64,000 bases of DNA from Chara braunii (taxonomy: Eukaryota; Plantae; Charophyceae). Shown piece after piece: positions 6,441-53,139 of the stretch (positions are counted from its first letter, which is position 1; each line of letters begins with the position of its first letter). The stretch is from contig BFEA01000020.1 of the NCBI GenBank assembly GCA_003427395.1, positions 3,121,986-3,185,985 on the forward strand, read 5' to 3'. The translations under genes were made by a program, and so were the position numbers. The notes under the pieces were generated by a model. It saw nothing but the letters and a program-made list of their open reading frames with translations, was not told where the DNA came from and did no database searches.

Positions 6441-6521
6441 AATTTTTTTTTAGGGTTTTTGACGGACTAACCCTTTCGAACGCTCCTCACCCTATCCAAC
6501 GTTCTCAACTCACTTAGGGGG

Positions 6522-9515: not shown

Positions 9516-9680
9516 TGGTGAGCTCGGGGTGGCCCTGGGCCCGGGGCCTGGGGTGGGGTCAAGCGGGGTGTGGGGCCAGGGATGGTTGGGAGCGGGGGTG
9601 GGGGTACGGGCGCGGGGGCGAGAGCTGGGGCGTGGGTGCGGGGCCAGGGGAGGGCGACACGGCGGGGGAGGGCACGGGGT
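9516..9680 (+). other. G-rich tract with many GGG/GGGG runs (potential G-quadruplex)
   Basis: More than 15 G-runs in ~160 bp, set in an AT-rich background. Confidence 0.45.
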
Positions 9681-22550: not shown

Positions 22551-23758
22551 TGTAGAGCGCATCGACCCTCGCTTAAAAACGAGGGCCCTCCCGGCCATGT
22601 CACGCAGGAGTTTACCTACAACAGAACTTCAAAAGAAAACTCGGGAACGACGCATAACTTTCCGCGAGCCGCCGAGATGGACGAGGTTGCATCGCTCCTT
22701 CGCCGCTCTAACTGGGTGCGCCAACTGTACTTCCCACGGTCCCCTACGACAGGACAGGTTCCCACGGGGCATAAGCTTGCATCCCTAAGGGGCTGTCACC
22801 ACCCTTAGGGCGTATCCCTACCGAACTACTGATTCACGTGCGAAGGCTTTTAAATGCAATCGCAGAGGTAGATCAGCCGAGGGCTTTTGCTCGTCTCGCT
22901 GCAGTATAGGAATTGTTTCACTAAACGCCGAATGAACCCGAGCGTCGTTCGTTCCATGGGGCGCTGATCTCCCAAGACGAAGCGTACGCCGGTCAACTAG
23001 GACAGTCTCAACCAAGCGTGAAAACGATCCTTGGTCCCTAGCAATCAAACAACAAGAATCTCCATGCCTTAAAACAAAATCACACAATCCAAATCATTGG
23101 CTTGATGAGCTGGTCTGCCAAAGTGTCCCTTTTCAACCTGTATGACTGAAATAACTCTTATACTGTCACTCAATGATTTTTAATTGAAGACATAAATTAA
23201 GACAGACCCTACAATCATGACAGTTGAAGTTTGTCATAAATAATTTCTGCAAGTAAATACCACTGGTACCATGCAGATCAACAAGTGATTTGGTTCTTGA
23301 TCAATGTTTGAACTCTCGGTTCGACCACGTTTCCGTACCATAAGCAACTACTTGGAGGAGCGAGTGACAACTTTGTTGGTCGCTTTGTCCTCCTGGACAA
23401 TAATTACTCTTTTTGTTTCATGAATGATGGAGTATCCCTCTTCAATGCCAAGTTGCTTAAAACGAAAGGTTCTGTCTTCTGTTGCTTTGTCATCGTCATT
23501 ACACATGACATATTTTTCAACGTTCGTTTTTTATTCAACTTATTTTTATGCGAACGATTACCCCTCAATACATACGCATGATAGTGAAATCATCGGGCTA
23601 ATCCGAATACTATCCATCCGGTGGTCCTACCTACATAAAGTGTTTTGTCTTTGTTTTTAGATTACCTCGTGAAACCATAAATTATATGGTTTCCTCAACG
23701 GGACTGAGTCCATGCGAGGTGTTTTATGAAATCTGAGTAAAATTTCAGAAGACAATGT

Positions 23759-24295
23759 CTAATCCTGGTAGATCTGTCGCCCGTTGCGTACCTGTGCCTC
23801 CAACGAATCCAGACGCGTCAGCTCGTCGTCGTCGCAAATCAGAGTAGACATTCGTCCACATCGCATGACTCTAATAATCCGAGTATTATAGAAGGAGGTC
23901 ATCCGAGAGGTTAGTCTCCAAACTATAACTCAGAGAGGTGGACTAAGTCGAGTCTCTATCCCGGATCCGGACGACGCCGAAACGTCTACCGGACGAGGTA
24001 ATCTTGATACTCACAATGACTCGAGAGAGACATTGGAGATACTCACGCGGTGGAAATACAACGTATAACCGTAAAGCTTGTTGGAAGTTCGAGCCGTGTT
24101 GACTCTGAAATCCTCGCGAGTGTTAGGGAAAAATCCCTCGTCATTTCGAAGCAATCCAATGAAGCCGATCAATACGGTAGGAATACCATCTCGAACTCGT
24201 AAAAGTCGCTCTGCACTCCTGATAAGATCCTCCTCGGGCGTATCGCGAACCAACAGGTACCTTGGGATTGTCAAATCTCTTCGAGCTCCAGGCAT
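23759..24295 (-). pseudogene. Second orphan ORF in the solo LTR (~178 codons) with two in-frame TGA stops
   Basis: MPGARRDLTIP...SLESL*VSRLP...SPPL*VIVWRLTSR...RQIYQD*; both stops could be CGA>TGA decay; the ATG directly follows CTGACTTTGTTCTAATATGCAG. Confidence 0.5.
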
Positions 24296-24319
24296 CTGCA
24301 TATTAGAACAAAGTCAGAA

Positions 24320-24832
24320 TTAGTCGCGTTGATATTGCTCTGTTTCCTCCGCCTCAGCCTCCAATTCATCATCATATAATGGCTCGATGTCTACGATTGC
24401 GAACCTATTGACTCGTACCCGTTCTGCAAAATATATACCGAAGAAATACCCTTGTCGATCATTTAACCAAAGCACGTACCCAACGAACATCAACCTTATT
24501 TCCGCGGTTTCATCCACCCGTGGGTTGATCTCATATGACTGCAATACCACCAAGTTCATATTGACGAAGTGACGCTCGGGCAATGGCAGCGTGAACTCGT
24601 AATGAAGAACATCCAAGCCGGCCAGTCTCCTGAAAATAAGTTGTTTGGGAGGTCTTTGCGCACTTCCATCCCAAAACTGCGGAACGTCCTCCTCAGAGTA
24701 CAACTCTGACGAATTGTAAACAAGTCGGCCTATCCTCTCTACCCTTTCTCCATTACGCCTCTGGAGTTCGACCCTTTCAGCCGCCGAATCGCGGTCGTAG
24801 AAAAGGAACAAGTCCGAGGATCCCATAGCCAT
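24320..24832 (-). CDS. Intact orphan ORF (170 aa) inside the solo LTR
   Basis: MAMGSSDLFLFYDRD...acidic tail DDELEAEAEETEQYQRD; the ATG directly follows an acceptor-like TCTTTCTTTTTTCTTTCAG; no family recognised. Confidence 0.6.
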   Translation of the reverse strand: MAMGSSDLFLFYDRDSAAERVELQRRNGERVERIGRLVYNSSELYSEEDVPQFWDGSAQRPPKQLIFRRLAGLDVLHYEFTLPLPERHFVNMNLVVLQSYEINPRVDETAEIRLMFVGYVLWLNDRQGYFFGIYFAERVRVNRFAIVDIEPLYDDELEAEAEETEQYQRD

Positions 24833-25122
24833 CTGAAAGAAAAAGAAAGACAAATGTGTTTTAAGTTAACTCTTGCCCAAAGAGTATTATTCGGTTTTTG
24901 TGTTCCTTACAGTCCGTGCTTCTTATGACACGACCACCCACGTCAGGAGTATCTAACTTTACTCCGTTCAACTAGTAGGACATGAGTCATGCTGCTTGTG
25001 ACACCAACTCTCCATACGTCAGTGGTACCTAAGATGACCACTTAAAACAGGGGTGCTAAAGCAGTTTTCTTTTTACGCAAGGCGTCAAGAAATAACTTTG
25101 TTCCGTGTAGATGCCTTTTCCA

Positions 25123-25296
25123 TTACCCTAAGAGGTGGTCTGGGATACTCCTCTTCCTCGCCCGAGTATAAATCTCGAATCTCAGAAGTCGGGCCGTCTC
25201 TACCGAATCGGCATAGTACCCCTTCGCAAAACGGTCCACTATGAGTCGATAACAGGGCCGACCCCTAAGGCAACGAACCCCTGCCCCAGATGCCTC
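25123..25296 (-). CDS. Possible terminal coding exon (57 aa, no own ATG) in the solo LTR
   Basis: Acceptor-like TTGCTTTCCCTTTTTTTTAG, then open frame EASGAGVRCLRGRPCYRLIVDRFAKGYYADSVETARLLRFEIYTRARKRSIPDHLLG*. Confidence 0.3.
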   Translation of the reverse strand, partial: EASGAGVRCLRGRPCYRLIVDRFAKGYYADSVETARLLRFEIYTRARKRSIPDHLLG

Positions 25297-26089
25297 CTAA
25301 AAAAAAGGGAAAGCAACTACACGGCAGACAAGAAGAATCTTGTTGCCTAACGTCAAAAGTAAACTTGGATGAAAAAAAAAGAATTCATAGAAAGATAGAA
25401 TCATTCAGACTGACAGGCATAGACGGGAAAAGGGTCATTCGGGAAAGAATGGGTAACCTAAGGGATAAGTCTAAATACAATTGAACTTTTCTTCCTTGTG
25501 CTCACTTCGTTTCTCGTCATCCTCTTTCTTTTTTATTTATACATAGAACACAAACACAAAGATGAAAAAGTGAACCATTCTTTCACCGTCATCACCCTCA
25601 TCCATTTCAGTCCACATGTCGTACCTGTAGTCAAAACCCAACGACACACAGACCACCATGCATTCCTTTACCATTGTAAGAATCCCAGTCATACACGCAA
25701 GAACACACATCCTCTTCCCTTTTTCAATGAACATTCAGTGAAACAGGTCAAAGCAAGTGAGGGTTCACTCAGGTGTGAAGGGAACTGAGTCAATTTAACC
25801 GACCTTGAGTGACGCTGAAATGAAGATAATAACGGCTCACTCAAGAAAACCGTATAAAATTACGCCCCTTTGTCAAGAGACGGTTGTCTTCCAGTCATCG
25901 ACAAATAATCCACACCACTCCTTTCACCACAACCACCTGTCACAACGCCTCCTCACTATGTTTTCCAATGAGTGTCACTGCCACTGACTTCTACTGTTAC
26001 CGCATCACCATGCCGTCAAAATTCACACCATCTCAATCCTCCACTTCAGCGATACCTTCCCTACACCAAGGTCCGGCTGCCGCTAAATG

Positions 26090-26525
26090 TGGAACTTCTA
26101 CCGCCGGTAACCTTGCGTTGCCGCCGTAGAATTTTCACAGCCCTTCCGCACCACCGCTGGTAAGACCGGAGTCACCGCCGAAAAATTTAGGCATCTCTTT
26201 CGCACCACCGCTGATAAAACCGTAGTCGCCGCCGTAGAAATTTTGCAGCACTTCAGTACCACTGCAGTAAAACTTGTGCCGCCACTGCAGAAATTCGGCA
26301 GCACTTCGGCACCACCGCAGTAAAAACTTGTGCCGCCGCCGCAGAAGTTTTGCAGCACTTCGGTACCACCGCAGTAAAACTTCTGCCGCCGCTGTAGAAA
26401 TTCGGCAACACTTCGGCACCACCGCAGTAAAAACTTGTGCCACCGCCGCAGAAGTTCGGCATCACTTCGGCACCACCGCAGTAAAAACCAGGACTGCCGC
26501 TGTAAAATTCCGGCAGCACTTCCCT
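26090..26525 (+). repeat. ~53-54-bp minisatellite (about 8 copies, two related half-units)
   Basis: CACTTCGGCACCACCGCAGTAAAAACTTGTGCCGCCGCCGCAGAA.TT..GCAG at ~26249, 26303, 26356, 26410, 26463, with more diverged copies upstream. Confidence 0.92.
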
Positions 26526-27926
26526 ACTATAGTGGGAAAATGGCAGACCAAAATTGGTAAAATTTGGGCCCCGGGCCCAAATCTCACAGCGCCGCACTGC
26601 CGCAGTCCCGCAGTACCACTGGGTCTGTCCCGTGGGACCAACACCAACCAAAGGAGAGAAGCAAAGTGCTCCTTGCCTTAGCTATGGCTGCCCAGTCTTC
26701 CTCTTCGCGCTCCTCTGCAGACCTCCAACTTCTTCTCCTTGCCTCAGGCAGCACCTCAGCAGCCCAGCAGCACTCAAATGCACGTCACACAATGACAACA
26801 CGAATGCTTTGTGAGGCAGCCGGGGGCAGCTGGCTGTTTTATAGTGGCTGAGGAGGGCTGGTCGTCACTCCAGCCCCCAGGCAAAATCGCGGGCTCACTG
26901 TGAGCCCTTCATCTGCCAAGATCCAAGGCTGACTGTGGCCGCACGACAACCACAACCTTAGTGTGGGGCGGTTTTTTTAACTGCTCTATTTTATTTTTCT
27001 TTTTCTTTTTCCCAGCTATCTCGGAATCTAGCGAGATAGCTACGCTCCTGCCATTTCCAAATATGTTTTTCTTTTATTTTTCTAATAAAGGGTTGAAAAG
27101 ATACAACCCTTTTCAGTTTGATGTATCTGGACCTTTTTTCCAGGGTAGATACATCGAGGAAAAAGGCTGTATCTAGCCTTTTCCTTAGTGGCCCTTTAAT
27201 TTCCAGGCTCCCTTCAAAAATGGGAGCCTGACAGTTACCTCTGGCAGAAGCACCACGTGAGGACAAGTGTCCTCACACTAAATAAAGAAAGGAAAAGAAA
27301 AAAAACTAACTTCCTAAATTCTACCGCACCTGGCTTTTACCTTGGCCAGGTGCATGCTGTTGCATACAACAACCCCCTTCCTTTTTCTCTGCTGTCCTCC
27401 CCTGAAAACGGGGAGGCAGTTGGCAAGTTGGGAGGAGTAGGTCCTCCCCCGCCCAACTCCCATGCCCCTCTCTCTGTCTCTCTCTCCCACGCGAGTACTG
27501 TGAGCCACGAGATTCAAGATCTCGTGGCCAGAGTGAGTAGGCAAAAAAAACGAAGTGGAAGCTTTTATGCTCCCACACAGTCCCAAGGACTGTTCTAGTC
27601 CTACCACGAGGCAGTTGCCTCGTTTTCGTTTTCTTTTTCTGCTTTTTTTTTTTTTTTTTTTTTTTTACAGTTTTTCAAGTTTACTTCGCTTCTTAGTCCT
27701 TTCCCGTTGCTTTCCCTTCTGGCTGTACTTCAACGGCCACGAACGGGGAGGAACAAAACAACAACAAACAAACAAAAAAAAGCAGAAAAACAAATAAAAA
27801 AAAACTTACTTGAAATTGTTGTCTGGCGGCCGCAGCAACAACAGTGGCCTTGACCACTGCTCATGACTGTATTCTTCCACGTTTCCGCGGAAGATTCATT
27901 CGATTTTGATCATCCTATACGTGGTG

Positions 27927-27996
27927 TGTAGGTAGGTAGGTAGGTAGGTAGGTAGTCTTTTTCTCCCTCTCTCTCTCTCTCCCTCTCTCTCTCTCT
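27927..27996 (+). repeat. (GTAG)n followed by (CT)n microsatellites
   Basis: Direct observation, just upstream of the hammerhead. Confidence 0.9.
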
Positions 27997-28048
27997 GTCA
28001 CGCGCGCCCGTACCTAGACGTTATTAGCGTTGGGTTCAGGTGCAATGG

Positions 28049-28106
28049 TAGACTGTCGAGGCTGCAGCCTCCCGATGAGTCGGTGAAACCCTGACGAAAC
28101 AGTCTG
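28049..28106 (+). ncRNA. Type III hammerhead ribozyme motif with a U4>C core variant
   Basis: Stem III AGACTGT/ACAGTCT; GTC cleavage triplet (cut after 28057); stem I GAGGC-TGCA-GCCTC; core CCGATGA; stem II GTCGG-TGAAACC-CTGAC; GAAA. Confidence 0.85.
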
Positions 28107-29381
28107 GCACAAGTTACCCGTTCGTTCAAAACAAACGGGTGTCCAAAAAAAAAAGGAAGAAAAATAACGGAAAAAAAAAAAAAAAATCTAAACTGAATCT
28201 AAGAAAANNNNNNNNNNNNNNNNNNNNNNNNNNNNNNNNNNNNNNNNNNNNNNNNNNNNNNNNNNNNNNNNNNNNNNNNNNNNNNNNNNNNNNNNNNNNN
28301 NNNNNNNNNNNNNNNNNNNNNNNNNNNNNNNNNNNNNNNNNNNNNNNNNNNNNNNNNNNNNNNNNNNNNNNNNNNNNNNNNNNNNNNNNNNNNNNNNNNN
28401 NNNNNNNNNNNNNNNNNNNNNNNNNNNNNNNNNNNNNNNNNNNNNNNNNNNNNNNNNNNNNNNNNNNNNNNNNNNNNNNNNNNNNNNNNNNNNNNNNNNN
28501 NNNNNNNNNNNNNNNNNNNNNNNNNNNNNNNNNNNNNNNNNNNNNNNNNNNNNNNNNNNNNNNNNNNNNNNNNNNNNNNNNNNNNNNNNNNNNNNNNNNN
28601 NNNNNNNNNNNNNNNNNNNNNNNNNNNNNNNNNNNNNNNNNNNNNNNNNNNNNNNNNNNNNNNNNNNNNNNNNNNNNNNNNNNNNNNNNNNNNNNNNNNN
28701 NNNNNNNNNNNNNNNNNNNNNNNNNNNNNNNNNNNNNNNNNNNNNNNNNNNNNNNGAGCAGCTCTTCAATATGAAGAGCTAGCCCAGGTGATTTCCCTGC
28801 CTGCGGCCTTGCAGGCTCCGCCCGTATGTGGCCTAGCAGGCCTGCCCCGGCTATGGCCTAGCAGGGCTACCCTGCCTGTGGCCTGCCGTTTACCTGCCCG
28901 TGGCCTACCCATACCGGTTAGCCGCGTGACCACGGCTTGGTCGGCCATCGAACCGGGTAAGCCTTGGCATTTGCCTATCGGCTCCCAGGCTCGAAGTCAG
29001 ACCCCGCAGCCCTAAAAAAAACAAATGCTTCCTACACCTCCTGCGTTGTGGCCCTATACTCCGGCGCAACCCTCTTTTTAGCCCATTTAGGCCCTGAATC
29101 ATAGGTAGGATAGGTTTAATTTTAACATTTCTTTATCCGCACATTCCTGCGGTTTTGACAATTCGTAGCCTTGTCGTTCACATCCGATACCTCCGGACGT
29201 CACATGCGTCCGGACTAAGTCCGAAAACTCTTAGTTTCTCAATCATAGGTCAAGTCGGAATAAACTTTTGGCAGACGTCAGTCTCATCAAGACTATTATT
29301 TCAACGCAAGAGTCGGACAACGTCCGACGTTCAAAAACACCGGCAAATACCCTTGTCAAGGTTTTTGCCCCGACATCACGG

Positions 29382-30170
29382 AACAACGTCACGAGCTTTG
29401 TAGACGACAGGGTCATACACTCTAAGACTGGTGAGACAATGGCCCAATCCATTGAAGAGTATTACCTCCGATACCCGTTTGTGGTGGAGTTTCTAATGGA
29501 CAGGGGGTCAGAGTTTACTTGTAAAGAAGTGAAGATGCTCCTAGACGAATATGGGGTAACTGTGAAATATACGACTGCAACACATCCCAAAGCGAATGCG
29601 TCAGTGGAAAGATGACATAGTACACTTACGAACCTCCTTGCGAAGTGGACAGGCGGAAGATTCATTCAATGGCCGAAGTATTTGAGGGCAACCTTCTTTG
29701 TGGAAAATGCGACTGCTAAATGAATCACGGGGTATGCGCCAGCAACACTTTGGTATGGGAGGCACGCGACATTTCCAACCGAAAGCATCCTAAAGACTTG
29801 GAGACGGCAAGACCTCGAGACTAATTTGTCATTTGAAGACCTTCTCGATTTAAGAGCACGCCAAATCGGAGCTACGAAAGATAGAATCAGGGATGTGGCT
29901 AACAAATCAGCAAATAGCTGCACCGCAGATAAGTTCACGTGAGATTGATTGACGCGCGTTCGAAGAGAGCCATTAAAGGTTGGAGATATTGTATTGTTGT
30001 ATGACTCCTCGTTAGAAAAGCAATGGTCCCGAAAGCTCGACAAGAGATGGCTCGGACCATACAGGATTGCCCGTTGTGGAGACTATGGATAATATCAGAT
30101 TGAGGAACCGAACAGGACGACACAAAAGGACTGGGTGTCATGAGGCAAATTAGCAAAATTTGTAGCACAG
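29382..30170 (+). pseudogene. pol: Remainder of the element A integrase (catalytic core and GPY/F region)
   Basis: FLMDRGSEFT, HPKANASVER, WPKYL, TGYAPATLWYGR, KVGDIVLLYD, RWLGPY; in-frame stops. Confidence 0.92.
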
Positions 30171-30310
30171 GAAGGGGTAAGTATGCATACGATAAGAATA
30201 AGATAACAAAAGGGTAATTAGGAGGTTAATATAAATTAGGAGTCAGAATTAGAGAGTTAATTGAAGAGTTTTGTTTGGTATGGTCAATGCTAAAGGTTGT
30301 AACCACCCGT

Positions 30311-30355
30311 ACTGATTCCCTTGTGTGCGTCTTGTTTTTCTCGCTTGTTCTGCAG
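30311..30355 (+). promoter_or_regulatory. Predicted 3' splice site upstream of the extra ORF
   Basis: CTGAT branch-like motif, long pyrimidine tract, TGCAG; ATG at 30366. Confidence 0.6.
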
Positions 30356-30365
30356 GCGTAACTTT

Positions 30366-32759
30366 ATGAAGACGACCATGCCGAAGGGTGGGAGGGACAA
30401 ACAGCCTCAAGAAGGTCCAGGAGGCGGGGAATCATCACGATCACATCAGCGAGACAACACTCCAATCTATGACGATGGTAGCCCAGATATGTTCATCGAG
30501 CAGTTCACGCGGCATGCGACAGACAGAGGATGGTCAAAGGGAACGATGATCCAACATTTGAGGGGTACGGGAGAGATGGGAGAGAGGATTGAGGAGTTGT
30601 GGACGCAAGGAGGGAGCTGGTTAGAAATAGAGGTGGGATTGCGGTTGCTGCAGCCATCACCGATAGGACTTGATGGGTTGCCCATTTGTATGACTGCAGA
30701 CAATCTGGACGAGTTCTTTCCAGCATATGAGGAGCACTGCAGGACAGTGGCCGTCATGAGAGAAGAGTACATGAGGAGGTCCCACAGTGGGCAGTGCCTG
30801 GGCTACGGAGAGACATCGCCCAAATTGGGCGTGCGGCGCGAGACTGGGAAGACTGCAAGGCCCAGATAAGGAGTGTCTGTGGGTTGTTTCGACACGACTC
30901 TCCAAGACCGCGAGTCGAGAGGAGGAGGAGGAGTGATTGAGTACGTGGCAGGAAGGAGACAATCTGTCTCTCGCCGATATAGAGAGGTCATTGATTTGGG
31001 GGACGATAGTCCACCTTTGTCAACCATTCACGAGACTGAGCCAGAGAGGAGAGTTACCCCTGAGAAGAAACATGAAGTGAGACCTGTTGTAGAAACTATC
31101 CTTGAGCTGGGGGACCGACCAAAGGCAGAGATGTTGGAGGAAGCGCGACCGATTGCGAATTTAGAGGAGTTGGAGACCCATTCGGAACCATCACAGTGAC
31201 CGTCGTCAGAGGCTGTTCCTGCCCCCACATCAGATGCGGCCCCTAGCAGTGTGGAGGCCGACAGAGTGATCGACACGCATCTTACGGCTGGGTTGGCATC
31301 ATCGGCAGGGGTTGCTAAGGCACCATCAACGGGTTCACCCAGAAAAGGGGCTCAAACTGAGCTAGTGGTATGTTGGGGAGCTCAGACCGAGCCAGTGGTA
31401 TGTGGGGAGACCCAATGACGAACCAGTCATCAGGCAAGGGAGACCCTACAGGAGCGTCAGGCCAGGGTAAAGGAAAGACTCGAGGAATTGGGAAGAGAGA
31501 AAGATAGGCATGAGGCAGCAGAAACACTACCAGACCCACCAGCAGATATGGGGTCGCAAGAGAGAGGAGTAGAGGCAATCTGGGCTAGATGGCTGGAGCA
31601 GAGAGACGCAGATCGTCAGAGACCTCAGGGCTTTGAATTTGTGGACATGAGGCTGGATCGTCGAGATGAGCTGATGGATTCTAGTTTTGTAGCAGCACGA
31701 AGGGCAGATCAGCGTTTGGAAGAGAAGATATGACGGCTTGCAACAACCTCTTTCGATAGGTACTCGATGTTGAGTGCTAAGTTGCAAGCACAAAAGCTAA
31801 AGATGGAAAGTCTGACCAAGCGATTGGAAAAGGTAGAGGCTGAAAACAAGTAACAGAAGGCGGCAGCCCAAGCAAAGGATGCTGAATGGGAGAGAAGACT
31901 TTGAGAGATGGAGGCGAAGATGGAGAAGTTCCAATCCACCACAGTGGTAGACTAGACCGAGCAAAGCAGGTACGACGTCCAAGGTCAAGCACTGGATGGT
32001 CTGTTTGTACAGAAGAAGGGGACGAAACCATCTCAATATCAAGGTTTGGGTAAGGTGATTATGGATCCTGCCGAGGCTAAGGCAAAGAAAGAAAGGGAGA
32101 AGGGAAACTTTGAGTTAAAGGCCCCAACAAAATTGGCCTCTCAGTTACCAATGCCTATGCAGAAGGAGGGAACGGTGGGAGAGAAGGCTCAAGTACCTAT
32201 GACAGAACCAGGGGAAGGGCAAGCAATGGAAATAACTCAGGCACCTGAGCCAGAACAGGTAGAGAGATCTTTAGACAGACTACTAGAGGCGCCCATGGAG
32301 AGGTTGATGTGCTTACCTACCTCAGCCACGGTCAGTGCACCTACCCACACACTAGGAGAGGAGGGTGCATATGGGACAGCGGCGAAGATTTGGTTAGGGA
32401 TGCCACTAGGGTTGCCCGAGAGTACGATGAGTCCTACGCTGACCATGGAGAAGGAGAGCCAGCCGTCAGAGAGGGATCTTCCTGAGATTGTTGCCGCAAG
32501 TGCTATGGAGGTAGATGTTCCCCTGGAGACGCCACAGAGGCTGGACACCCCAGAGTATGTACCACCGCTTGGCAAGCCTGGAGAGGGGATGAACTCATGG
32601 TTGGCGGGGGCAGCCATGGGAGAGTCGGTACCCATACCGACACAAGAGGGAGCCACGACCCAGGCGACAGATGCCCTCTCATCATCAACCCCTCATGAGA
32701 GGAAGAGAAAGAGGATAAGGAAGCACGAACGGGAACAGAAGGTTGCAGGCCCAAGTTGA
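30366..32759 (+). pseudogene. Extra ORF downstream of integrase (env position): Gag-capsid-like N-terminus, coiled coil, E/P-rich tail, basic C-terminus
   Basis: Fragments 30321-30869, 30873-31199, 31488-31733, 32046-32759; PIYDDGSPDMFIEQFTRHATDRGWS resembles retrotransposon Gag motifs; KRKRIRKHER at the end; no obvious TM segment. Confidence 0.65.
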
Positions 32760-37800: not shown

Positions 37801-38100
37801 CACTACCAGAATAATAAGTTGTGTGCGAAGGAATCGAGAGCAGAAGGAGAACGAAAAGCAAAGGGGGAAAAGGTTATAACTCACTCATTTCTCGACAGAA
37901 TCGAGTATGGTAAAAGGCTAGACGGGGGTTTTGGGACATGGCGAAGAGATTGGCAGTACCGGATTTCGATTTTGGGCAGCAATTTGGCTAGTGTGAACAC
38001 AGAAGGTTAACGACACCTATTTTTTTCATTATTCTAGGAACACTCGGTTGACAATCCTGATTTCTACGAGTTCAGACCAATGTTTTCACTAGCATTCTTG
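34871..38100 (+). repeat. LTR (U3 part), same superfamily as the other two giant LTRs; 3' end not found
   Basis: Starts TGTAGGCGTGAATACCCTTACAAGGGTAT versus TGTCGGTGCGAATACCCTGACAAGGGTAT (minus strand from 52509); GTGTG.GCG...AGTTC..GACGCGCGTG is shared between 35036-35075 and the reverse complement of 52322-52365. Confidence 0.75.
35780..37290. pseudogene. Mosaic of degenerate LSU (25S/28S) rRNA fragments in both orientations
   Basis: Sense: CCCGTCTTGGAACGAGGACC (cf. CCCGTCTTGAAACACGGACC), ACCCGAAAGATGGTGAACT, GGGTATAGAGCGGAAGACTACTCGAGCCATTTAGT. Antisense: CCACTTCAGTTTTCAGAAGTTCCCATTTGAATCTTTGCTGCCACCACCAAGATCTGCACCG at ~36093, related copies at ~36612 and ~37070. Confidence 0.85.
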
Positions 38101-38149
38101 AAAAGTTTTAAGATTTACATTGTTGGTATGGTGCCCCGTTTACGGAGAG

Positions 38150-41070: not shown

Positions 41071-41250
41071 TAGATGCATTTAAACTACTGAACAACACAA
41101 CCTCACAACCCCCATTCATTATTGCAGCTTCCTTTTTCATCATGAAGAACACATCCCCCACCCTGAATTCAGGCCAAACAAAACACAACAAAATTCTCAC
41201 TTCACATTTTTCATCCTTGAAATTTCAGGTAGGTGATAACCACTTGTGCG

Positions 41251-44200: not shown

Positions 44201-44996
44201 TCTCCTCCTCACCGTAGTCTTCTTGCTTGGTCTCTTCGTCCCCTACCTCCTTTCCCCGACTTTGGACTACGGTTACCACCTTTCTCTGTACCTCAGCGTC
44301 ATTGCCATAGCCTAGCTCCGCAAGCACGTCCGTGACAATCCTTTTCACTCCCGGGGTTCCAGATGCAGAAGCGTCCCTCTCCTTTTTCTTCCTCCTCTGC
44401 AAGCGCATCTGACACTGCTCTACCTGGTCCAGACTCTCATCTTCTACTCCCTTATCAATGGTGGCCCAGGTGAGTTTTGCACTACCCCCTCCATGGCTCG
44501 TCAATTCTGCAGCCTCTGAAGCAGTGAGCAACCCCCAAAAAATGGTGCACTGCGCTTCTTCTGAGATCCCATGAACCTTCCTTGCCTTTTTCTTAAATTC
44601 TTGAAAAAACGTCCCTACCGTAGTGAAGTCGTCCTTGTTCATGGCTTCGAGATCTGCGGTGGTCAGCAACCCATCGCCCAGCCTATACTTGCGCTGCATG
44701 CCATCTCTAAACCTCGCCCAACTGTCATTGGCCGTATTTATGACCTTCTCGACTTCTTGATGATGACCATGAAGTACGTACTTCAGAATGCGCTGAAATT
44801 TTATCGCATCTGACAACCCCACCAACGCTTGCTCCACCAAATCCAACCAATCTGAAACCCTTTCTCCGCTGAAGTGGAAGGCATCAACCTTCAGGATATT
44901 GCTTGGCGTTTTCTCATGTCTATCAATGGCTGCAATGAGGTCCTCAAGTGTCAGGACCTTTCTTGTACCATCCACTAAGCCACCAGACTCCGGCAT
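41251..44996 (-). pseudogene. gag-pol: gag-pro-RT(N-terminal) polyprotein of element B, with stops and frameshifts
   Basis: Gag FHFSGERVSDWLDLVE; RGG/Q-rich region; CWYCGNTGHTI*FC knuckle; protease AMVDTCAEMNII...ILPGRSFL; RT IHTVPHEPW...SPWFCFIKSNRTLRWVQDL; homology ends near 41251. Confidence 0.93.
41830..41836 (-). promoter_or_regulatory. Predicted -1 frameshift heptamer T_TTT_TTA between protease and RT
   Basis: The protease frame reads CTT TTT TTA and stops 15 codons later; the -1 frame reads FSGRLKQGSQRRYKTVDKK towards RT. Confidence 0.65.
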
Positions 44997-45311
44997 CTTG
45001 ACCGACGCCTCTTGTCAACTTCCTGTTAAGAGAAAGGCAAAATACTCACCTATTCAGCACCATTCTCTGTAAAGATTTATGTCGTATACCCTACCTAGTT
45101 TCCCCACGATGTCTACCTAACTAGGTATGGCTGCTCCTCATAGCTTTTCTAGGTTAGGCAGGTAACCAACCAACATAGGGGATGCTAAGTTTTTCTTATT
45201 TGTACTCAATATACAGACCAACCCAGACTCTCATTTTCTTCCTATGCCTATTTCCTTTTCAGTCTCATACCCGGATGTCGTTCCACCAGGGACAACGGTA
45301 GGCTTCCGTTA

Positions 45312-45329
45312 TCCCCGGCAACGGCGCCA
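45312..45329 (-). promoter_or_regulatory. Primer-binding site (tRNA-Asp type, as in Athila-like Gypsy elements)
   Basis: Minus strand TGGCGCCGTTGCCGGGGA, 2 nt after the LTR end ...CGCTCGACA. Confidence 0.88.
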
Positions 45330-47584
45330 CCTGTCGAGCGCATCCCTCCGACACGGCAAAGGGCAGCGAGGGACCCTTTCGGCCGCGTCACTCAGGAGTT
45401 TGTCTATTTCCTCGTTGCGAATATACACATAGAGCTTCCATAAGCCGCTCTGGCCGAGTGCGCCAGCCATACCTCNCGCGAGCCCCTACGACAGGATAGG
45501 GCCTACGCGAGGCACAACTTGCCTCCACCTTACGGGAGTTGTCACCTCCCTTCGGTGGGCGTATCCCCGCCGAGCTACCAGTCCACATTACGAAAGCTAA
45601 TCAATTGCAATCGCAGAGGTGGACCAGCCGATGACGTTTCTCGTTCGCTGTAGCATAGGGGGTACGAGTGGTATTACGCCTCTATCGAACCCGTACGAGA
45701 ACCGACATCTTGGGGGCTAAGGTCCCAAGCGCGACTCGTCGTCGGTCGACTAGGACGTATCCCACTCACCATGCGTACACCACACTACGAAAAAAAAATA
45801 AAACACACACACACACATACATCAAACAATGCGACAACACTCCTAGTCCCTTAGTAGCCATCCCATAACTCTACGATGCTTAAATCAGATAGGTGTCACG
45901 CGCGAGACTTAGTATAAGATCGCGTGGACGCAGGACTAACTCATATCGATTCGCAACGTAAGCGTACACAAGCGGTCGCAATGATGGTGTACTATATAGT
46001 ACCCATACTTATGCGGTCCTCGTTAATCTCGAGGGTCGCATTCAACACTCAAGTGTCGGCTGACACGCGCCTTGAGGGTTAATCTCTCGACACTGGACAA
46101 CCTCCAAGTGCGGTTGAAAACCACACCCTCTTCTACACCCTGCGGAGAGTGGGTGGTACACAGGTTCATACCAGTGGTGGAAATCGTGTCTTATGGCCCT
46201 GGAGACCAACTCCTTCCCCTAGGGCCTGGAAACGAGTCAAGGGGTTTGACTTTGACGGTTACCACGGACTACAACGTGCAGCTATGACAACTCCGAAAAA
46301 CAAAAATACGTCGAAGGCCTCCCTATCCCAAAATCACAACCTTGGGTAACCTTTTCGGTTGGCACCAACGACCTATACTGACTCTGGACACACATGTACA
46401 CATACGAATCACTTGATCTCATAACTCTAAACACTAGGACGGGAGAACATCGTGCGCAAGACTTTGATATAAAGTTGTGCGGTTGCAAGCCCTTCCTACA
46501 TCAACTGGCGATGCTAGTCATACGCTGCAATCGCAGTTTCGGCCTCGCGATATTGAATGGCTGAAGGAATATATCGTGAGGGGTTACCCTTCACGATATT
46601 GAACGGCCGAAGGACATGTCGTTCAGACCTCGCAATATTTCTGGCCTCAGGGTTGGGTGTCTCGACGGGCAGGGCACTTAGGTCCTGTGTGGAGGGGTAG
46701 TCCCTCCTTGCAGGGCTAAGCCATGGGGCGTCCTAGACAAGGACCTCGAATTTCAGGCCCAGGACTAAATGTCCGACTATATCAACTCAAAATGCAAAAG
46801 GAGTCTCGCTTTTTCTCTCGAAGTCAGAGGCCGGTAGGCCCCTACGTGTAGCCATAAATAGGCGGCGCCGTCACTCATAATATGTATAAATATGGGGTTG
46901 TTTATATGGGACGATCGTTTCTCATAGTCACAGTGGGGCCCCTTGTAACCATACTTGTATGTTGTCGCAGGCAGTTACATCCAAACATCCAACTCACCAC
47001 ACATATCTGCAATCACATGAAAAATCCCACGAAGGATTTCACACGCTACACGGGGTTAACTTCAACCCATCTCTGTACTCACACCCTTTGCTTTAACCAA
47101 TCAAGCCTCACTCTTGTGCAACTCCTCAAAATAAAATACTCAGTACTTTTCTTTAAATGGTCATTCAAGTAAAGTCCGGGCGAAAACATAACAAAACAGT
47201 TCAAATCACAAGGCTAAAACCTTTAGGTTGAGTGACAAGAGTGGATTGGAGTTGAGTAAAACGACGAATCGGTAACCAACATGTTATCAGTGATAACAGA
47301 AGGTGATCCTCAAGGGATCAACCTGGATCTAGTCCAAGTCCTGAACCCAATCGATTCAGTTGGCCTGTAACACAAGACAGGTCAACGCTCAAGACAAAAC
47401 TTATAAGTTCATGGAGAATAATCTCCACATCACCATCTCACTCAATTCATCTTATTTAAGTAGGCCTAAGTCTACCTCTAGGCAAGTGCCGAAAGAAAGG
47501 TAGAATCATGACAGAATCTTCCCTATCCAGGGTGGATTACCAGAATCGCCACCTATCAAAATATAATATAACTCCCCTTAAACT

Positions 47585-47890
47585 AAGAAAATTCCGGCAG
47601 CGCTTGCCGTAGGAAAAATGTATGTTCAGAATCTATATCAGCCTGAATATGAAAATAGAAATAGTCTTTGACTTTTTTAAGTCAAATTTTGTTGAACTTC
47701 CTTATTTAGCAAAAATTTGGCAGCACTCCCTTTAGAAAAGGAGACTTTCCAGATTTTTACTAAGCCATGTATGAAATTTAGACAAGTTGAACCTTGAAAA
47801 AACGAAATTTGACTAACTCTCTAGCTTTGCAGAAATTTCGGCAGCGCTTCCGTAGGGAAAGTGGCTTACCAAAATGTATACGAGCCCAAG
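47585..47890 (+). repeat. Three diverged ~122-bp tandem units
   Basis: AAATT..GGCAGC.CT..C.TAG.AAA at ~47589, 47712, 47833. Confidence 0.65.
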
Positions 47891-48173
47891 TATAATAAAT
47901 AATATCAGAAAATACAAAAATTGGTCTAAGTAAAAAACTAACTCAGAAAATGCAGAAATTGAAACTAACTCTTATTGCTCTAGCACGTGGCGAGTCACTA
48001 AAGCAACTACCTATCAACCTGAAACTCAAACTAAGTAGTAATCTCCCCCAGCCACATGCAGGCTAAACCACAAAGGTCAGTACTCTCACAATTCTCAAGG
48101 TTAGAACTTGTCAAACAATAGTTCATAGTCTTTCATTGATTTAACCCCTTATACCCTGCTTACATAGGGCACT

Positions 48174-48993
48174 GAGCTTGGTCATTCGTCTTAGAAATAA
48201 TGCTAACTCTCTGCCTTACTTATACACGAACAGGTTGCACAACTACTTCTCTCTTCATTGGGCACACGACTAAGCCATTCGTCTTAGAAACGATGCTTAG
48301 TCGCCTTGATTTGTTTAAATAGTCAAGTTATATATCTCTCTCCGAACTTAATCTTCAAAAGTGAGCGTAAGACTGAGCCATTCGTCTTAGAAACAATGGT
48401 CCGCCGGACCAAGTTACCTTCAGTTATAGCTCTTAGTTATACTCTCTTGATTTGTGGTAAGGCTATAGTCAGACCATTCATCTTAGAAACAATGTCTGGC
48501 TAGCCTTGTTCTCATAAACATACAGATATAGAGTTATAAAAAAATCTTATTTTTTTGTTCTCATTATAATCCTGTGGCCTCAAACTTAGACCATTCATCT
48601 TAGAAACAATGCCTAGTCTTTGACCTTAACCTCCGTCTGAATTAAACAATCAAAAGAATTGAGCCATTCATCTTAGAAATAATGCTCAACCTATTTTCTC
48701 AGCAAAAAAAAAAAACAGATTACTCTGGGTCAAAAATCCAGAGACTGTTCAGAAACCACCCAAAATAAACAGTGACCAGACCATTCATCTTAGAAACAAT
48801 GTCCGATCCTCAAATTTTGCACAGTCAATACCCCAAAGAAACAACAACCAGACCATTCATCTTAGAAACAATGCCTGGTTAAATTAAATAAACACAGCGA
48901 CCAAGCCATTCATCTTAGAAATAATGCTTGGTCCTTCAGAAAATAGAACAAAACATAGCAGTCAGACCATTCATCTTAGAAAGAATGCCTGAC
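48174..48993 (-). ncRNA. Array of 10 predicted RNA hairpins with conserved 20-nt core, variable covarying stems and unrelated spacers
   Basis: Core CATTC(A/G)TCTTAGAAA(C/T)AATG at 48183, 48276, 48379, 48475, 48592, 48665, 48782, 48854, 48907, 48968; flanking arms differ per copy but are mostly self-complementary. Confidence 0.8.
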
Positions 48994-51900
48994 CCTATAA
49001 GACTCATTCAAGTGCAAGCAAAACTGGCTTCCTCCCAGCCTTCCCCGTGATGCAACCCCTTTTCACAATCTGTTTTTTAGACAAACAACAAAAGTTGAAA
49101 CTGAAAAATTGTGCATGCATTTTTTTACTTAAGTCTGGGTTATGTCCTGAAAGTCAAACTAAAGTCAAAGTAGGGGTGCACTCAATACACTCAGTCAGAT
49201 ATATAGAAAGATGTATAGGTAGGGGTTATAACTGGGTTTATAAGGGGAAACAATGGTTACCTCTGAGTTCCCTGCCTCCAGAACTCCTCCTGAGTTCCGA
49301 CAGAGCTCCCGCAATCGGTGGGTTGACTCCCCACAGAGTCTTGACGAGGACCTACGGGTTGCAATCCCGTCTGCCGCCTTCCTCTCAGAACCAATAGACT
49401 AGACTTAGAGTAAGAAGGGTAGAAGAAGAAGATTAAGACTATCAGATACAAGGAGGGTGCTCTCAGACTCGCGTGAGAGGGCCTGGATATCTCTGGTCGC
49501 CTGAGGGCCCCGCAATGGTGGCCAAACGGCAACAACTTGGTCAAACCTGATTCAACCCGCTGCAGCCAACTCTCTGGCGACTTCCCAGTTCGCAGCGATA
49601 ACTTCCTTGCAATTCAACCACCCTTCGCTACACCACGTCTTCACCCTGCAACAACAAGAGTAATCACCCTCCAGAGAGTTGGCACCATCAGCAGCAACCG
49701 CAGGGCATGAGGATGCCGACCCTGCAAACCGCCGATCTTTGAAGATTGCTAACCTTGCAGACTGCCACCAAGTCTAGGTATGTACCCCTTTTCTACTCCC
49801 CTTTTCTGTTGTTGTACTGTTCGCAGGTACACGTCTCCTCTCCGCAGCGCGGCTATGGTGGACTTCCTTTGCGATGACGCTCCTCCACTCCCACGACCTG
49901 CGGTGCGTGGGATAGCGGGTACCAGCTCTGGGACCAGTACAATCAGACTCCCTTTTTCACTCGCTTCATGGGCATGCGAACAAGAGATTCAGCAAACTGG
50001 CAACTAGCGACTAGCCTCAGAGCTCGAAAAATAACAACTTGGAACATAGTTCGTATACAAGTCCCCATCAGACGGCTGCGGCGCACAACGCCCGCAACCC
50101 CCAACTCGACACTATACTCAACTTACTGTTTGCACACACACCCACACCCTGCACAATCTTTACAACTACGGCTCCCTCTAGCTCTATACTATGGCTATTC
50201 TCTTCTCCCCGCCCACTTTCTCGTCGGGCATCTGTAGACCAATACTACGTGGTCCGACAATTGTCGTTCACATCGCTGTAACAACGCTTCTGTATGGCTT
50301 ATGCAGGAATGAATCATTACCTCGGCGCTGCACCTTGATTTATACTTTTGCTCCGTATTGGTCTGCCCTTCCCATCGACCCTGGGTGCTCACGGTCCCGT
50401 ATGGTACTTGCTTGCCTGGACCTAGACAGGCTGGGACTGGGTCCCACCGACTCAGCACAGGTGGACTTCACCATTTGCCAGTAAGTGTGAAACTCGAAAC
50501 GGGACGAGGATGTATCTTCCGCTAGAATATGAAAAGATACATCACCACGCACCTGTTACTCTTTATGACTGTCACGCAGTCTCATCTCTCTTCTACACTA
50601 AATCTACTAACTCTTTACTCAAACTAACCACATAACCTGACTCGCCCGGCCTAGAAACCTCAATCTAATGCCCTAGATCGTCAAAAATCGGACGGAAAGT
50701 GCGCGAATTACTATCACTTCGCTCTCGCTCACCTTCCCTTCCGACACTCTCCGCGCACTCCATCTTTCTACGAACTTTTTCTACACTAACTTTCTCTTAA
50801 TTATGAGTTTAGAAATGAGGTCGCCATGATCCAAAAGTCCCGTTCTAAGCCCTCCCCTGCCAAAATCCATTCACAGCCGCATGAGATATGCTCGCTCCTT
50901 TCTCCTTATCCTCCACCATCTCCATCTCCGAGCAACTCTATCCTCATCTAGCTCCAAATCTACTAACCTTTTACTAAATCTAACACCACCATCGGACTCG
51001 GCCTAGCAATAACCTCCTAAAACAACTCTTCGTTCACCCGTTTTCATCAAGAAATGGGTGAGCTAGACGATTCCTTGTTCTACTATAGCCACAACCTTCT
51101 CACGTTCGACTACCGACGCACCTTGCACAGGCGCCTGTACGGGTTCACTCCTTCTGTTTCCACCAGTCTCGTCGACCTCACCTTCTCTGTTAAACTCCGC
51201 CCCTCTGTACTAGCTCGTTTCCCCTCTCTAGTCCTTTACACCTCCTTACCCGCAGCGCTCCGCTTCGCCTTTCCCTTCATGCCAACTCTTTCTATTCCGA
51301 TCCACTTCTTTCCCTCTCGTCTACCCGCTTCCCGCCTCACTCCAATTTTCTTGTCACACCTGCGCTTCGTTCTTCGCAACGCCCGACCATGATAGCCCCA
51401 CAACGCCCTGTACCCGACCCTTTCAATACTACGTGGTCCGACAACATCAAAATATCAAAAAAGAAAACAACCGACTGTCGGATCTCTCTGTATCATTCCA
51501 AGGCAGTGCCCCGTGGTACTCTCAAATGCTAACTGGCCTTTACACCGGGCATATTGAACAGGGAATAAACACCACTCCCTGGCATGCCCGACTATCCTGG
51601 TCTCCCTGCCTATCGTGATGCCCTTTGCCTGGGCCCAGACCGCGGCCTGCATCCCAAAAATCTATAGGTGTACCCACCGAGTCATGATCATGGACCCTCG
51701 GCCCGGGCTCGAAACCGGTACCAGCCCAAATGGAATCAAAATAATGTAAAATAAAATAAAAATAAATAAAAGTCGAAAAAGGAGGTTCTAATAGGACAAG
51801 CCGACTGGGACAGGAGGAGGGACCTTGCGGCACTCCCCTGATCCCGCCAAACGGGCCCGCAATCGGTTTTCCCCAGCAAAACTAAGAAGGATAGTCCCGC

Positions 51901-53139
51901 GGGACCCTCAACCCCTCAGCTCCTTCGTCGCTGCTTTGCTCCCAAGTTGCTGCCTGCTGGCCTCGATCCTCGCACCTCCATCTCGCCAGTCTAGTACCGT
52001 AACCTATAGGGCTAAGCCCCAACTTGGGACCAGCAGGCGCGGAGTCTCATGTAAAATGGTATAGCGCCGCGCCCAGGCCCAAAAAGCACGACCCAAACCT
52101 TACTTCCACCTACAACCAAGTGCGCATCTGCTAGACTTCTGCCCCAACTTACGCAGCTGGCGCCATGACCACCAAGAGCACCATCCCGCATGCCAAAGCT
52201 ACCGCTGGTCATACATGTGGGACAAAACAAAAATTAGAACTTTCAAATTCTTATTTTATCCTAGCAATCAAAAATCATGTTTGACAACTTATGCCAAACA
52301 TCACAATCCATGACCAAAAGTAAAAGATCACACGCGCGTCTTGAACTTACTCGCTCACACATCCTCTATCTTAGTCAACCTCCTAGCCCAATGCAGGTCA
52401 CAGACGCGGCCGTGCCTCACGCGGTACACTCAGACTTTTAATTCAAACTTGTCTTCTGTCATTTGCAAAAACGAGGGTGGATACCCTTGTCAGGGTATTC
52501 GCACCGACATAGCGGATGCGGAAGTTCGGATTCCAGCGAACTTTCGTCGAGACAGGGTGGAGGACATGATTGGTGGGCGGGGTTTAGAGGGTCGAGGACG
52601 ACCGTTTTCTAATTTTCTGAGAGTCGCCAGCAACGACTGTCAGACCCTGATGTTGCAGGAATGTGTTTTTGCAAGCGTCGTCTCCGCGGTGTCGTACCAA
52701 ATACAAGGGTATTTGGCGTGTCTCCTCCAAGTTTTGCGAGTGCAGGCCTCGCTAGTCCGACGGCGTGCGCGCGAGAGGAGGCTTAGGTCCTGGTAGGGGT
52801 GAGCGGCACGCGCAGGGTATTCATGGCAAGGTAAAACCCTGCGTGGCCAGGGTGTGAGCGGCGTCGCAAGCAAACGGGACGTGCAGCCCCTCGTCCCAGT
52901 AATGTTTGTGTTCCCCCGCATTTTAGTTTTTTTATGCATTGGTAATTTTTTTATTATTGTTATTCCTACCTTTATTTTGTGCATTTGACTCGGTGATGGG
53001 GTCTGAGACCGACGTCGGGACCGGCACGCCGGGCTCTGTTACAGTATTGTCGGGCACGGATTGCCGTCACGACAGTTGGGGACCTTGGGTGTGCGCCCTT
53101 CGGGTTGGCCCATGGTGCAGGAGAAAAGGCTGAATAGTG

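Follow-up and report, generated by a model that had tools for sequence, protein, structure and literature searches.

Ty3/gypsy LTRs of about 7 kb with conserved ends and unrelated interiors in the charophyte Chara braunii

Results

The window analyzed here is a stretch of 64,000 nt from contig BFEA01000020.1 of Chara braunii. Gag, protease, RT, RNase H and integrase domains were detected in it with Pfam, and the order PR-RT-RH-IN was observed both with Pfam and in tblastn searches with Chara polyproteins. Among the matches listed for the RNase H ORF, 120 out of 120 homologues were C. braunii Ty3/gypsy polyproteins. The window is thus Chara DNA full of nested, decayed Ty3/gypsy elements. One of the fragments, on the minus strand at 53819-57750, runs from protease through RT to RNase H (Pfam Asp_protease_2, RVT_1 and RT_RNaseH; tblastn) and lies outside the three LTR regions described below. 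No intact element with two LTRs was found within the window, nor any direct repeat of at least 100 nt joining two of these regions. As there is no LTR pair, the identification of the LTRs depends on other features.

The first region, LTR 1 (22551-29375, minus strand), is a solo LTR with TGT..ACA ends, and both boundaries are exact LTR termini. Its length of 6825 bp is an estimate because it includes an assembly gap of 548 N (28208-28755). Several other assembly gaps occur in the window. LTR 1 was inserted into the pol of a plus-strand Ty3/gypsy element. The left half of this host (21582-22550) encodes RNase H and integrase and matched P0031 residues 710-1034 in tblastn. The right half (29376-32669, plus strand) contains the integrase core, with a Pfam rve match at 29235-29612, and a long C-terminal/post-integrase region; it matched P0031 residues 1033-1285, 1286-1420 and 1702-1887. 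LTR 1 therefore splits one integrase frame exactly at 22550/29376, with two integrase residues read twice across the insertion. A CACGG duplication flanks it, with GCACGG on one side and TCACGG on the other, which can be read as a 6-bp target duplication containing a single mismatch or as one of 5 bp with an additional base. In addition, a paralogue contig without the insertion has the empty-site joint 22549->29397 (X4). The depth in every bin within LTR 1 was 1,700-46,000, compared with about 10-16 for single-copy sequence, although summed contig depth is no copy number. In the post-integrase ORFs of the host, no Pfam match was found and no env-like ORF was recognized.

We considered whether 22551-29375 is instead a complete non-autonomous element with short LTRs, LARD/TRIM-like or retrozyme-like. 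Its TG..CA ends, target duplication, lack of coding capacity and hammerhead-like motif (see below) would fit such an element, and the 548 N hide part of the sequence. However, its two ends share no direct repeat, and neither a PBS nor a copy of either terminus motif was found inside it. Its ends are also homologous to both ends of LTR 3, a bona fide 5′ LTR. We regard this explanation as highly improbable.

LTR 3 (45332-52509, minus strand) is the 5′ LTR of a minus-strand element. It is 7178 bp long with TGT..ACA ends; both boundaries are exact LTR termini, and the depth jumps at each of them. A tRNA-Asp primer-binding site lies 2 nt after the LTR (45311-45329, minus strand). It is the single match in the window and is identical at 19/19 nt to the tRNA-Asp PBS printed for FIDEL in Table 1 of PMC2844528. 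The gag starts 336 bp beyond the LTR, at 44996. The gag and protease region (41252-44996, minus strand) matched P0062 residues 1-702 and 715-1008 in tblastn as well as Pfam Retrotrans_gag and Asp_protease_2, and it is truncated before RT. In one contig, a joint (52509->45312) connects an LTR-3-type terminus with the PBS through 28 purine-rich nt, which stand before that terminus.

LTR 2 starts at 34871, on the plus strand, with TGTAGG and the 5′ terminal motif. This is a genuine LTR start, which we assigned to the 3′ LTR of the plus-strand element. LTR-like sequence extends for only about 0.7 kb (34871-35570), and no LTR 3′ terminus was found downstream of 34871. Farther downstream, at 37341-38007, the depth drops to about 45. 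The 30 nt that precede 34871, checked for a polypurine tract, are not rich in purines. They are conserved with other copies, and they resemble the consensus of the contigs running on from 29375; 131 X1 contigs continue past 29375 into sequence of this kind. About 4.7 kb separates the integrase core from 34871. Between LTR 2 and the truncated minus-strand element lies an 87-88-bp satellite in two inverted blocks, together with a 116-bp repeat (38146-41073; TRF, inverted repeats, depth 150-1,065). These satellites are unrelated to the 90-93-bp satellites at 1-20000. A sequence-only reading of this DNA had proposed three giant LTRs of about 7 kb. Two of them, LTR 1 as a solo LTR and LTR 3, are indeed of this size, but nothing found here supports it for the second, downstream of which no 3′ terminus was seen.

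The ends of these LTRs are related. LTR 1 and LTR 3 both begin with TGTCGG on the minus (LTR-sense) strand, followed by a common terminal hairpin motif, which had four matches at three sites in the window against 0.17 expected. Both end in the 13-mer GATGCGCTC(T/G)ACA, i.e. ..CTC(T/G)ACA, which had only two matches in the window. In nhmmer comparisons, positions 30-462 of LTR 1 matched positions 36-434 of LTR 3 (about 430 bp, 68-80% identity), and the first 0.7 kb or so of LTR 2 matched positions 6520-7176 of LTR 3 (about 75% identity; also found with blastn). No homology was found between LTR 1 and LTR 2 with nhmmer, and blastn agreed. The roughly 6 kb between the conserved ends is unrelated among the LTRs with both programs. 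The earlier proposal of shared ends and different interiors holds for the two LTRs of about 7 kb. All three LTRs come from different subfamilies that have diverged even at the ends, and none is the partner of another.

The depth within LTR 3 is extremely uneven. Although it is no copy number, the summed contig depth ranged from 20-28 at 51140-51699 to 470,000-750,000 at 45540-45819, with exact single-copy contigs at about 7-17. A low-copy stretch lies at 50020-51699 (depth 20-390, with two exact single-copy contigs, 1545 and 893 bp long) and is interrupted by a repeated bin at 50300-50579. Conversely, a short block at 49180-49459 is very abundant (219,000-272,000, compared with about 15,000 on either side) and matched no Rfam family. 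LTR 3 is therefore a mosaic of blocks that differ greatly in genomic abundance. Many loose ends and joints indicated that the LTR blocks are joined differently in other copies. About 2 kb in LTR 3 is close to single-copy and is therefore not a propagated module.

Such unevenness, together with the 548-N gap in LTR 1, the other gaps in the window and the truncated start of LTR 2, which shows that truncated LTR starts occur here, might mean that the spans of about 7 kb are composites. In that case, 5′ and 3′ fragments of shorter LTRs would have been joined by deletion, recombination or scaffolding around unrelated DNA. Several observations speak against this. LTR 1 is one insertion with matching target bases and both termini in the correct orientation, situated within a continuous reading frame. 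LTR 3 is a second, independent case in which 7.2 kb containing just one N separates the same two termini, and exact contigs tile 49501-51917 over its low-copy part. Neither an internal PBS nor a second terminus motif or internal LTR-like repeat was found. We consider composites unlikely.

Several sequence features lie inside or near the LTRs. In LTR 1, TRF confirmed a minisatellite at 26120-26522, with 6.8 copies of a 54-bp unit (78% matches) or 2.7 copies of a 107-bp unit. The orphan ORFs that had been noted in this LTR found no support: none of the 97 ORFs with a length of 70 aa or more matched a Pfam domain, and the 181-aa ORF had no homologue.

The hammerhead that had been reported in LTR 1 is present as a type III hammerhead-like motif. 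Antisense to the LTR (28050-28105, plus strand), it matched the full Hammerhead_3 model of Rfam (RF00008) with 44.4 bits (E = 9e-07), below the gathering score of 48.5. At gathering thresholds, Rfam reported nothing in the whole window. The GUC cleavage triplet and GAAAC are present, and CCGAUGA replaces CUGAUGA, a change at an important core position. The minimum free energy fold is a predicted three-way junction (z = -2.5). The motif follows directly after a (TC)n run, between microsatellites and the assembly gap, which begins 100 nt downstream. In a plant LTR retrozyme, each of two LTRs of about 350 bp contains a type III hammerhead, and between them is a short non-coding core bearing PBS and PPT; here, a single hammerhead motif was seen, and no PBS lies nearby. 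Loose ends flank it at 28050 and 28111 in both DNA and RNA reads; the motif behaves as a free-standing 60-nt repeat, found genome-wide with unrelated flanks.

Downstream of the start of LTR 2, pieces derived from LSU rRNA are split and partly duplicated (about 35707-35960 and 36690-36921, plus strand). Positions 816-953 of LSU_rRNA_eukarya were matched at 36697-36921 with 38.9 bits and positions 675-812, weakly, at 35835-36011 with 12.7 bits. About 730 bp separates the two pieces, an RNA-read joint (35960->36690) connects them, and uniform loose ends are found at 35707 and 36199. The Rfam matches and the RNA-read joint point to a block derived from host RNA. An rRNA mosaic in the second LTR had been claimed; the split pieces exist, but they lie beyond the LTR-like 0.7 kb.

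The hairpin array described for LTR 3 was borne out. Ten hairpins at 48173-48996 have a conserved 19-nt loop and covarying stems of 8-9 bp. Only one of 20000 permutations of swapped arms equalled the pairing of a hairpin's own arms. Of the cells, 77.8% were paired, compared with 65.4% after shuffling (0/500), and eight of the nine pairs had changed on both sides. Such covariation is the pattern that would be expected of a selected structure and not of junk.

For none of these modules did we find a TSD or the terminal structure of a nested insertion, and no second copy of the hammerhead or of the LSU fragment was seen. We infer nested insertion of the modules from depth and loose ends only.

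Discussion

LTR 1 and LTR 3 each span about 7 kb between genuine termini, with conservation confined to a few hundred bases at the ends. We think it probable that all three regions belong to a single Athila/Tat-like lineage of Ty3/gypsy elements in Chara, each being an LTR of a different, diverged member, and that their interiors result from accretion and turnover and not from maintained cargo. The ends would persist because both integrase and reverse transcription depend on them. The interior, which would be mostly U3, could expand in three ways. The minisatellite and the hairpin array could come from tandem duplication. Other dispersed repeats could insert, for example the unit bearing the hammerhead and the 280-bp block of very high abundance. 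Template switching could capture abundant cellular RNA and so supply the LSU rRNA pieces. Any sequence landing in the LTR of an active copy would be copied into both LTRs in the next cycle; LTR size would then ratchet up and subfamilies would diverge quickly. The occurrence of independent LTRs of 6.8 and 7.2 kb suggests that large size is a trait of the lineage, which accretion alone does not explain. The stem covariation of the hairpin array likewise counts against this reading.

The same observations could be read as an LTR platform for exchangeable accessory modules (ORFs, a ribozyme and structured RNAs) that benefit the element, are copied into both of its LTRs and survive in solo LTRs. 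Such a platform would look like what is seen in LTR 1 and LTR 3, each about 7 kb long, with conserved ends but wholly different interiors. In or close to the LTRs there are also a motif resembling a hammerhead and pieces of rRNA origin, and Cassandra, Helenus/Ajax and the retrozymes provide precedents, as far as the sources cited below describe them. The hairpin array also has high genomic abundance; together with the conserved loop and the covarying stems, this makes it appear propagated and constrained. Against this, no module was observed in both LTRs of a single element, the ORFs lack domains and homologues, the hammerhead-like motif falls short of the gathering threshold, has one altered core base and shows boundaries of its own across the genome, and some 2 kb of LTR 3 is close to single-copy. 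The rRNA pieces lie outside the demonstrable part of LTR 2, and the elements in the window are old and broken. The claim that the lineage keeps exchangeable accessory modules is thus unsupported, and we judge a cargo platform improbable.

Under the accretion and turnover that we prefer, the finding itself reveals no new mechanism. It gives a picture of LTR inflation, in which conserved ends enclose a mosaic interior that changes quickly. The picture bears on the growth of the Chara genome of about 2 Gb and on LTR-finding software that limits LTR length. Only the covarying hairpin array might be something other than junk. A bolder version, which we offer only as speculation and doubt strongly, is that the LTRs of a charophyte Ty3/gypsy lineage are the longest yet described (>7 kb) and that they carry and amplify structured-RNA modules, chiefly covarying hairpin arrays with a fixed 19-nt loop. 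Subfamilies would exchange these modules through recombination in the course of reverse transcription, and the LTR, not the internal region, would be the evolvable cargo bay.

Among known systems, the parts consulted on Cassandra (5S rRNA), Helenus/Ajax and the plant retrozymes describe RNA-derived sequence inside the LTR that is duplicated by the LTR replication scheme (PMC10886601, PMC4918200), the retrozymes having a type III hammerhead in LTRs of about 350 bp. As described there, these elements are short and non-autonomous, and both of their LTRs contain the module, which their biology requires. In Chara, by contrast, we found one sub-threshold hammerhead in one solo LTR, and the LSU fragment lies outside the demonstrated LTR. 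Chlamys Penelope-like elements, according to the sections seen of PMC8557442, reach high copy numbers in C. braunii, have 3′ hammerheads and use (CT)n or (CA)n microsatellites as insertion sites. The position of our motif directly after a (TC)n run is similar. However, the hammerhead of Chlamys-2_cBra given there has a type I layout and another sequence, whereas the motif here is of type III, and the Pfam search of the ORFs revealed no PLE coding sequence near it.

The Athila/Calypso-Tat group is characterized, in the portions seen of PMC2844528 and PMC1142308, by long elements whose LTRs exceed 1.2 kb and by a sizeable region separating integrase from the 3′ LTR. The Chara elements resemble its members FIDEL, Diaspora and Calypso in their tRNA-Asp PBS, their LTRs of more than 1.2 kb and their long post-integrase region; a putative membership of the group is based on these three features. 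They differ in having a charophyte alga as host and no recognized env-like ORF. Their LTRs are also about 7 kb long, compared with 1.5 kb in FIDEL.

Ogre elements are characterized by their own PBS type and an intron in pol. In legumes, these Ty3/gypsy elements hold the record and owe their size mostly to the extraordinary length of their LTRs, for which the text seen of PMC6431247 quotes 1.9-6.5 kb. The Chara LTRs are at or slightly above the top of that quoted range, the two complete ones (6.8 and 7.2 kb) slightly exceeding it, and their PBS is of the tRNA-Asp type.

Ty3/gypsy elements in the window

In a protein homology search, the 213-aa RNase H ORF at 53819-54457 (minus strand) had 132 matching proteins at E <= 1e-10, and all 120 that were listed were Chara braunii Ty3/gypsy polyproteins (best identity 82%). 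Pfam searches of 23 long ORFs revealed pieces of gag, aspartyl protease, RT, RNase H and integrase on both strands. The window also contained extensive satellite arrays and a number of assembly gaps, one of them of 548 N (28208-28755).

We mapped the elements with tblastn, using 120 Chara polyproteins as queries against the window. RNase H-integrase of one plus-strand element ran from 21582 to 22550 and resumed at 29376-30134, and the long C-terminal region of this element extended to about 32669. On the minus strand, an element had its gag start at 44996 and its protease end at about 41252, where it stopped. A further minus-strand fragment, comprising protease, RT and RNase H, lay at about 57750-53819. 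Abundance was read from summed contig depth, which is not a copy number; exact single-copy contigs gave about 7-17. The post-integrase region of the plus-strand element (30671-33338) was near single-copy (depth 15-70) and the adjoining integrase was repeated, which suggests that the sublineage is old or rare.

Two complete LTRs and one truncated LTR start

The first region (LTR 1; 22551-29375, minus strand) interrupts the plus-strand element. Residues 710-1034 and 1033-1285 of one Chara polyprotein query (P0031) abutted exactly at 22550/29376; thus, the region is an insertion within the integrase reading frame. Its termini were TGT..ACA, and CACGG was found on each side (GCACGG and TCACGG). 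A contig of run X4, aligned to the window, connected 22549 to 29397 and represents a paralogue without the insertion. The ends of the region shared no repeat with each other, and neither an internal terminus motif nor a PBS was found. A solo LTR, 6825 bp long with the N gap included, accounts best for the region. It was repeated along its whole length, with a summed depth of 1,700-46,000 per 667-bp bin.

The third region (LTR 3; 45332-52509, minus strand) is a 5′ LTR of 7178 bp with a single N inside. Two nucleotides past it lay the PBS, a 19-nt string identical to the PBS given for the peanut element FIDEL, which Table 1 of PMC2844528 describes as complementary to the 3′ end of Arabidopsis tRNA-Asp. 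The gag start mapped 336 bp past LTR 3 (tblastn). At 52509 there was a terminal hairpin motif common to the TSD-flanked end of LTR 1 and to the start at 34871; it had four matches at three sites in the window, compared with 0.17 expected. Summed contig depth rose at 45260 from about 90-110 to over 200,000, and fell after 52539 from about 30,000 to about 1,000. One contig of run X1 linked 52509 to the PBS (45312) via only 28 purine-rich nucleotides, which amounts to an LTR-PBS-PPT-LTR unit with hardly any internal sequence, located elsewhere in the genome. No RNA match was listed for LTR 3. The RNA reads of run X5 were mostly less than 90% alike and limited to the hammerhead, the rRNA-like pieces and a few short motifs, and therefore derive from other loci.

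The second region (LTR 2) starts at 34871 on the plus strand, downstream of the post-integrase region of the plus-strand element. The 30 nt preceding this start resembled the consensus of 131 X1 contigs continuing past 29375. Homology to LTR 3 was restricted to the first ~0.7 kb, and summed depth dropped to about 45 at 37341-38007. The 3′ terminal 13-mer was not repeated downstream of 34871; its two matches in the window were both elsewhere. As no 3′ terminus of LTR 2 was found, the three ~7-kb LTRs of the sequence-only reading are really two: that length held for LTR 1 and LTR 3, and only ~0.7 kb of LTR 2 was LTR-like.

No direct repeats of at least 100 nt were found between the three regions. 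Using nhmmer and relaxed blastn, we aligned positions 30-462 of LTR 1 with 36-434 of LTR 3 (68% across some 315 bp, one patch reaching 80%) and their final 44 bp (77%). The first ~0.7 kb of LTR 2 matched positions 6520-7176 of LTR 3 at about 75%, in patches, and LTR 1 and LTR 2 had no similarity except the terminal motif. The relationships found were at the ends alone, as expected from the claim that terminal sequence is shared and interiors differ. The three LTRs are diverged relatives, with no pair among them.

Two satellite families were present. A 90-93-bp satellite formed two large arrays (1-6200 and 13500-20000) in opposite orientation, with strong opposite AT/GC skew, separated by about 7 kb of other sequence including an N gap. 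An 87-88-bp satellite formed inverted blocks at 38146-39386 and 39410-40833, with arms of up to 274 nt that were 89% complementary; it occupies the space separating the truncated LTR 2 from the truncated gag-protease element and is unrelated to the 90-93-bp satellite. Similarity between the arrays at 38146-41073 (87-88 bp) and 1-20000 (90-93 bp) would have pointed to a 5′ LTR partner of LTR 2, but none was found.

Modules proposed for the LTRs

The hairpin array described in LTR 3 was recovered as ten units (48173-48996), whose 19-nt loop is invariant and whose stems of 8-9 bp covary. The own arms of each unit paired better than swapped arms (1 of 20000 permutations). In the alignment, paired cells reached 77.8%, compared with 65.4% after shuffling (0/500) and 19-38% when slid, and eight of nine stem pairs were changed on both sides. 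Its depth (10,000-52,000) and the copy-number joints indicate that the array is widespread in the genome. It matched no Rfam family. The array is the sole component bearing a signature of constraint, and it may itself be an RNA or DNA structure under selection.

The minisatellite of LTR 1 was present at 26120-26522. The orphan ORFs gained no support: when ORFs of at least 70 aa from the three regions and their surroundings were searched against Pfam, none of the 97 had a match (E <= 0.01), and the longest, of 181 aa, had no homologue among proteins of 99-317 aa. Autonomous transposable elements nested inside the LTRs were rejected on the same Pfam result.

At gathering thresholds, Rfam gave no match in the whole window. 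A hammerhead-like motif in LTR 1 (28050-28105, plus strand) matched the type III model over its full length, but its 44.4 bits fell below the gathering score of 48.5. Besides a GUC triplet and a three-way MFE fold, it shows CCGAUGA in place of the consensus CUGAUGA. It lies antisense to LTR 1 and is immediately preceded by (GTAG)n and (TC)n runs; the N gap follows 100 nt further. DNA contigs and RNA reads matched only about 28050-28111 and then diverged into unlike sequence, with loose ends at 28111 in 140-163 contigs and 884 reads. Therefore, the hammerhead is a free-standing, abundant 60-nt unit. RNA reads on this unit carried on into a single downstream sequence, on which they agreed well (agreement 0.87), which suggests that a hammerhead-bearing repeat family is expressed in Chara braunii. 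The Chlamys Penelope-like elements of C. braunii are described in PMC8557442 as high-copy, hammerhead-bearing and preferring (CT)n targets. The Chlamys-2 hammerhead given there has a type I layout and another sequence, whereas that of the window is type III-like; the hammerhead strings searched were absent from the supplementary sequences of that paper.

In the second region, positions 816-953 of the Rfam LSU rRNA model matched 36697-36921, and positions 675-812 weakly matched 35835-36011. About 730 bp interrupt the piece, which is also duplicated in part, and 33 RNA reads joined 35960 to 36690. Agreement among the loose ends was 0.98-0.99 at 35707 and 36199, as expected for one abundant RNA. 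The split LSU rRNA pieces behind the proposed rRNA mosaic are real, but they are located past the demonstrable LTR.

Block structure of LTR 3

Summed depth along LTR 3 was 100,000-750,000 at 45260-46379, about 1,200-1,700 at 46660-46939, 25,000-137,000 at 47220-48059 and 220,000-270,000 at 49180-49459. It was 50-390 at 50020-50299 and 50580-51139, 20-28 at 51140-51699 and 26,000-36,000 in the last 250 bp (52260-52539). Loose ends occurred within the LTR, for example at 47255 (agreement 0.88). These thousand-fold depth steps, the loose ends and the joints show that neighbouring blocks differ strongly in genomic history. No convincing TSDs or terminal inverted repeats were found around internal blocks. 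A tRNA-like or SINE origin of the abundant block at 49180-49459, suggested by what looked like a T-arm, was rejected, as ARAGORN reported 0 genes and no Rfam family matched.

A perfect 21-nt direct repeat (50240-50260 and 51424-51444, 1184 bp apart) was observed in the low-copy part of LTR 3. RNA reads on a ~75-nt stretch at 50273-50347, which had no Rfam match, had loose ends of high uniformity (agreement 0.92-0.96), a pattern that a piece of a single abundant transcript would give. A ~35-nt motif that contains a short inverted repeat occurred six times, on both strands (6558-6626, 7045-7112, 20788-20834, 20927-20968, 27868-27901 and 50506-50547). RNA reads stacked on the last copy (50504-50547), with unlike flanks.

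Discussion

The LTR ends used by integrase and reverse transcription are conserved. Between them lies an interior pieced together from tandem repeats, other dispersed repeats, fragments of host RNA and unique sequence. This combination fits accretion plus rapid turnover within a lineage tolerant of very long LTRs. It is no demonstration of the maintained, exchangeable cargo that had been proposed.

Our literature search found no paper on Chara LTR length, although the Chara genome paper (Cell 2018) may cover the topic. PMC2844528 and PMC1142308 name a tRNA-Asp PBS, LTRs above 1.2 kb and a long post-integrase region as characters of the Athila/Calypso-Tat branch. The Chara elements resemble this branch in having a tRNA-Asp PBS, LTRs above 1.2 kb and a ~4.7-kb post-integrase region. 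LTRs over 3 kb are called infrequent in PMC3485330, and a review terms the length of Ogre LTRs, 1.9-6.5 kb, extraordinary (PMC6431247). Compared with that range, the two complete Chara LTRs are marginally longer.
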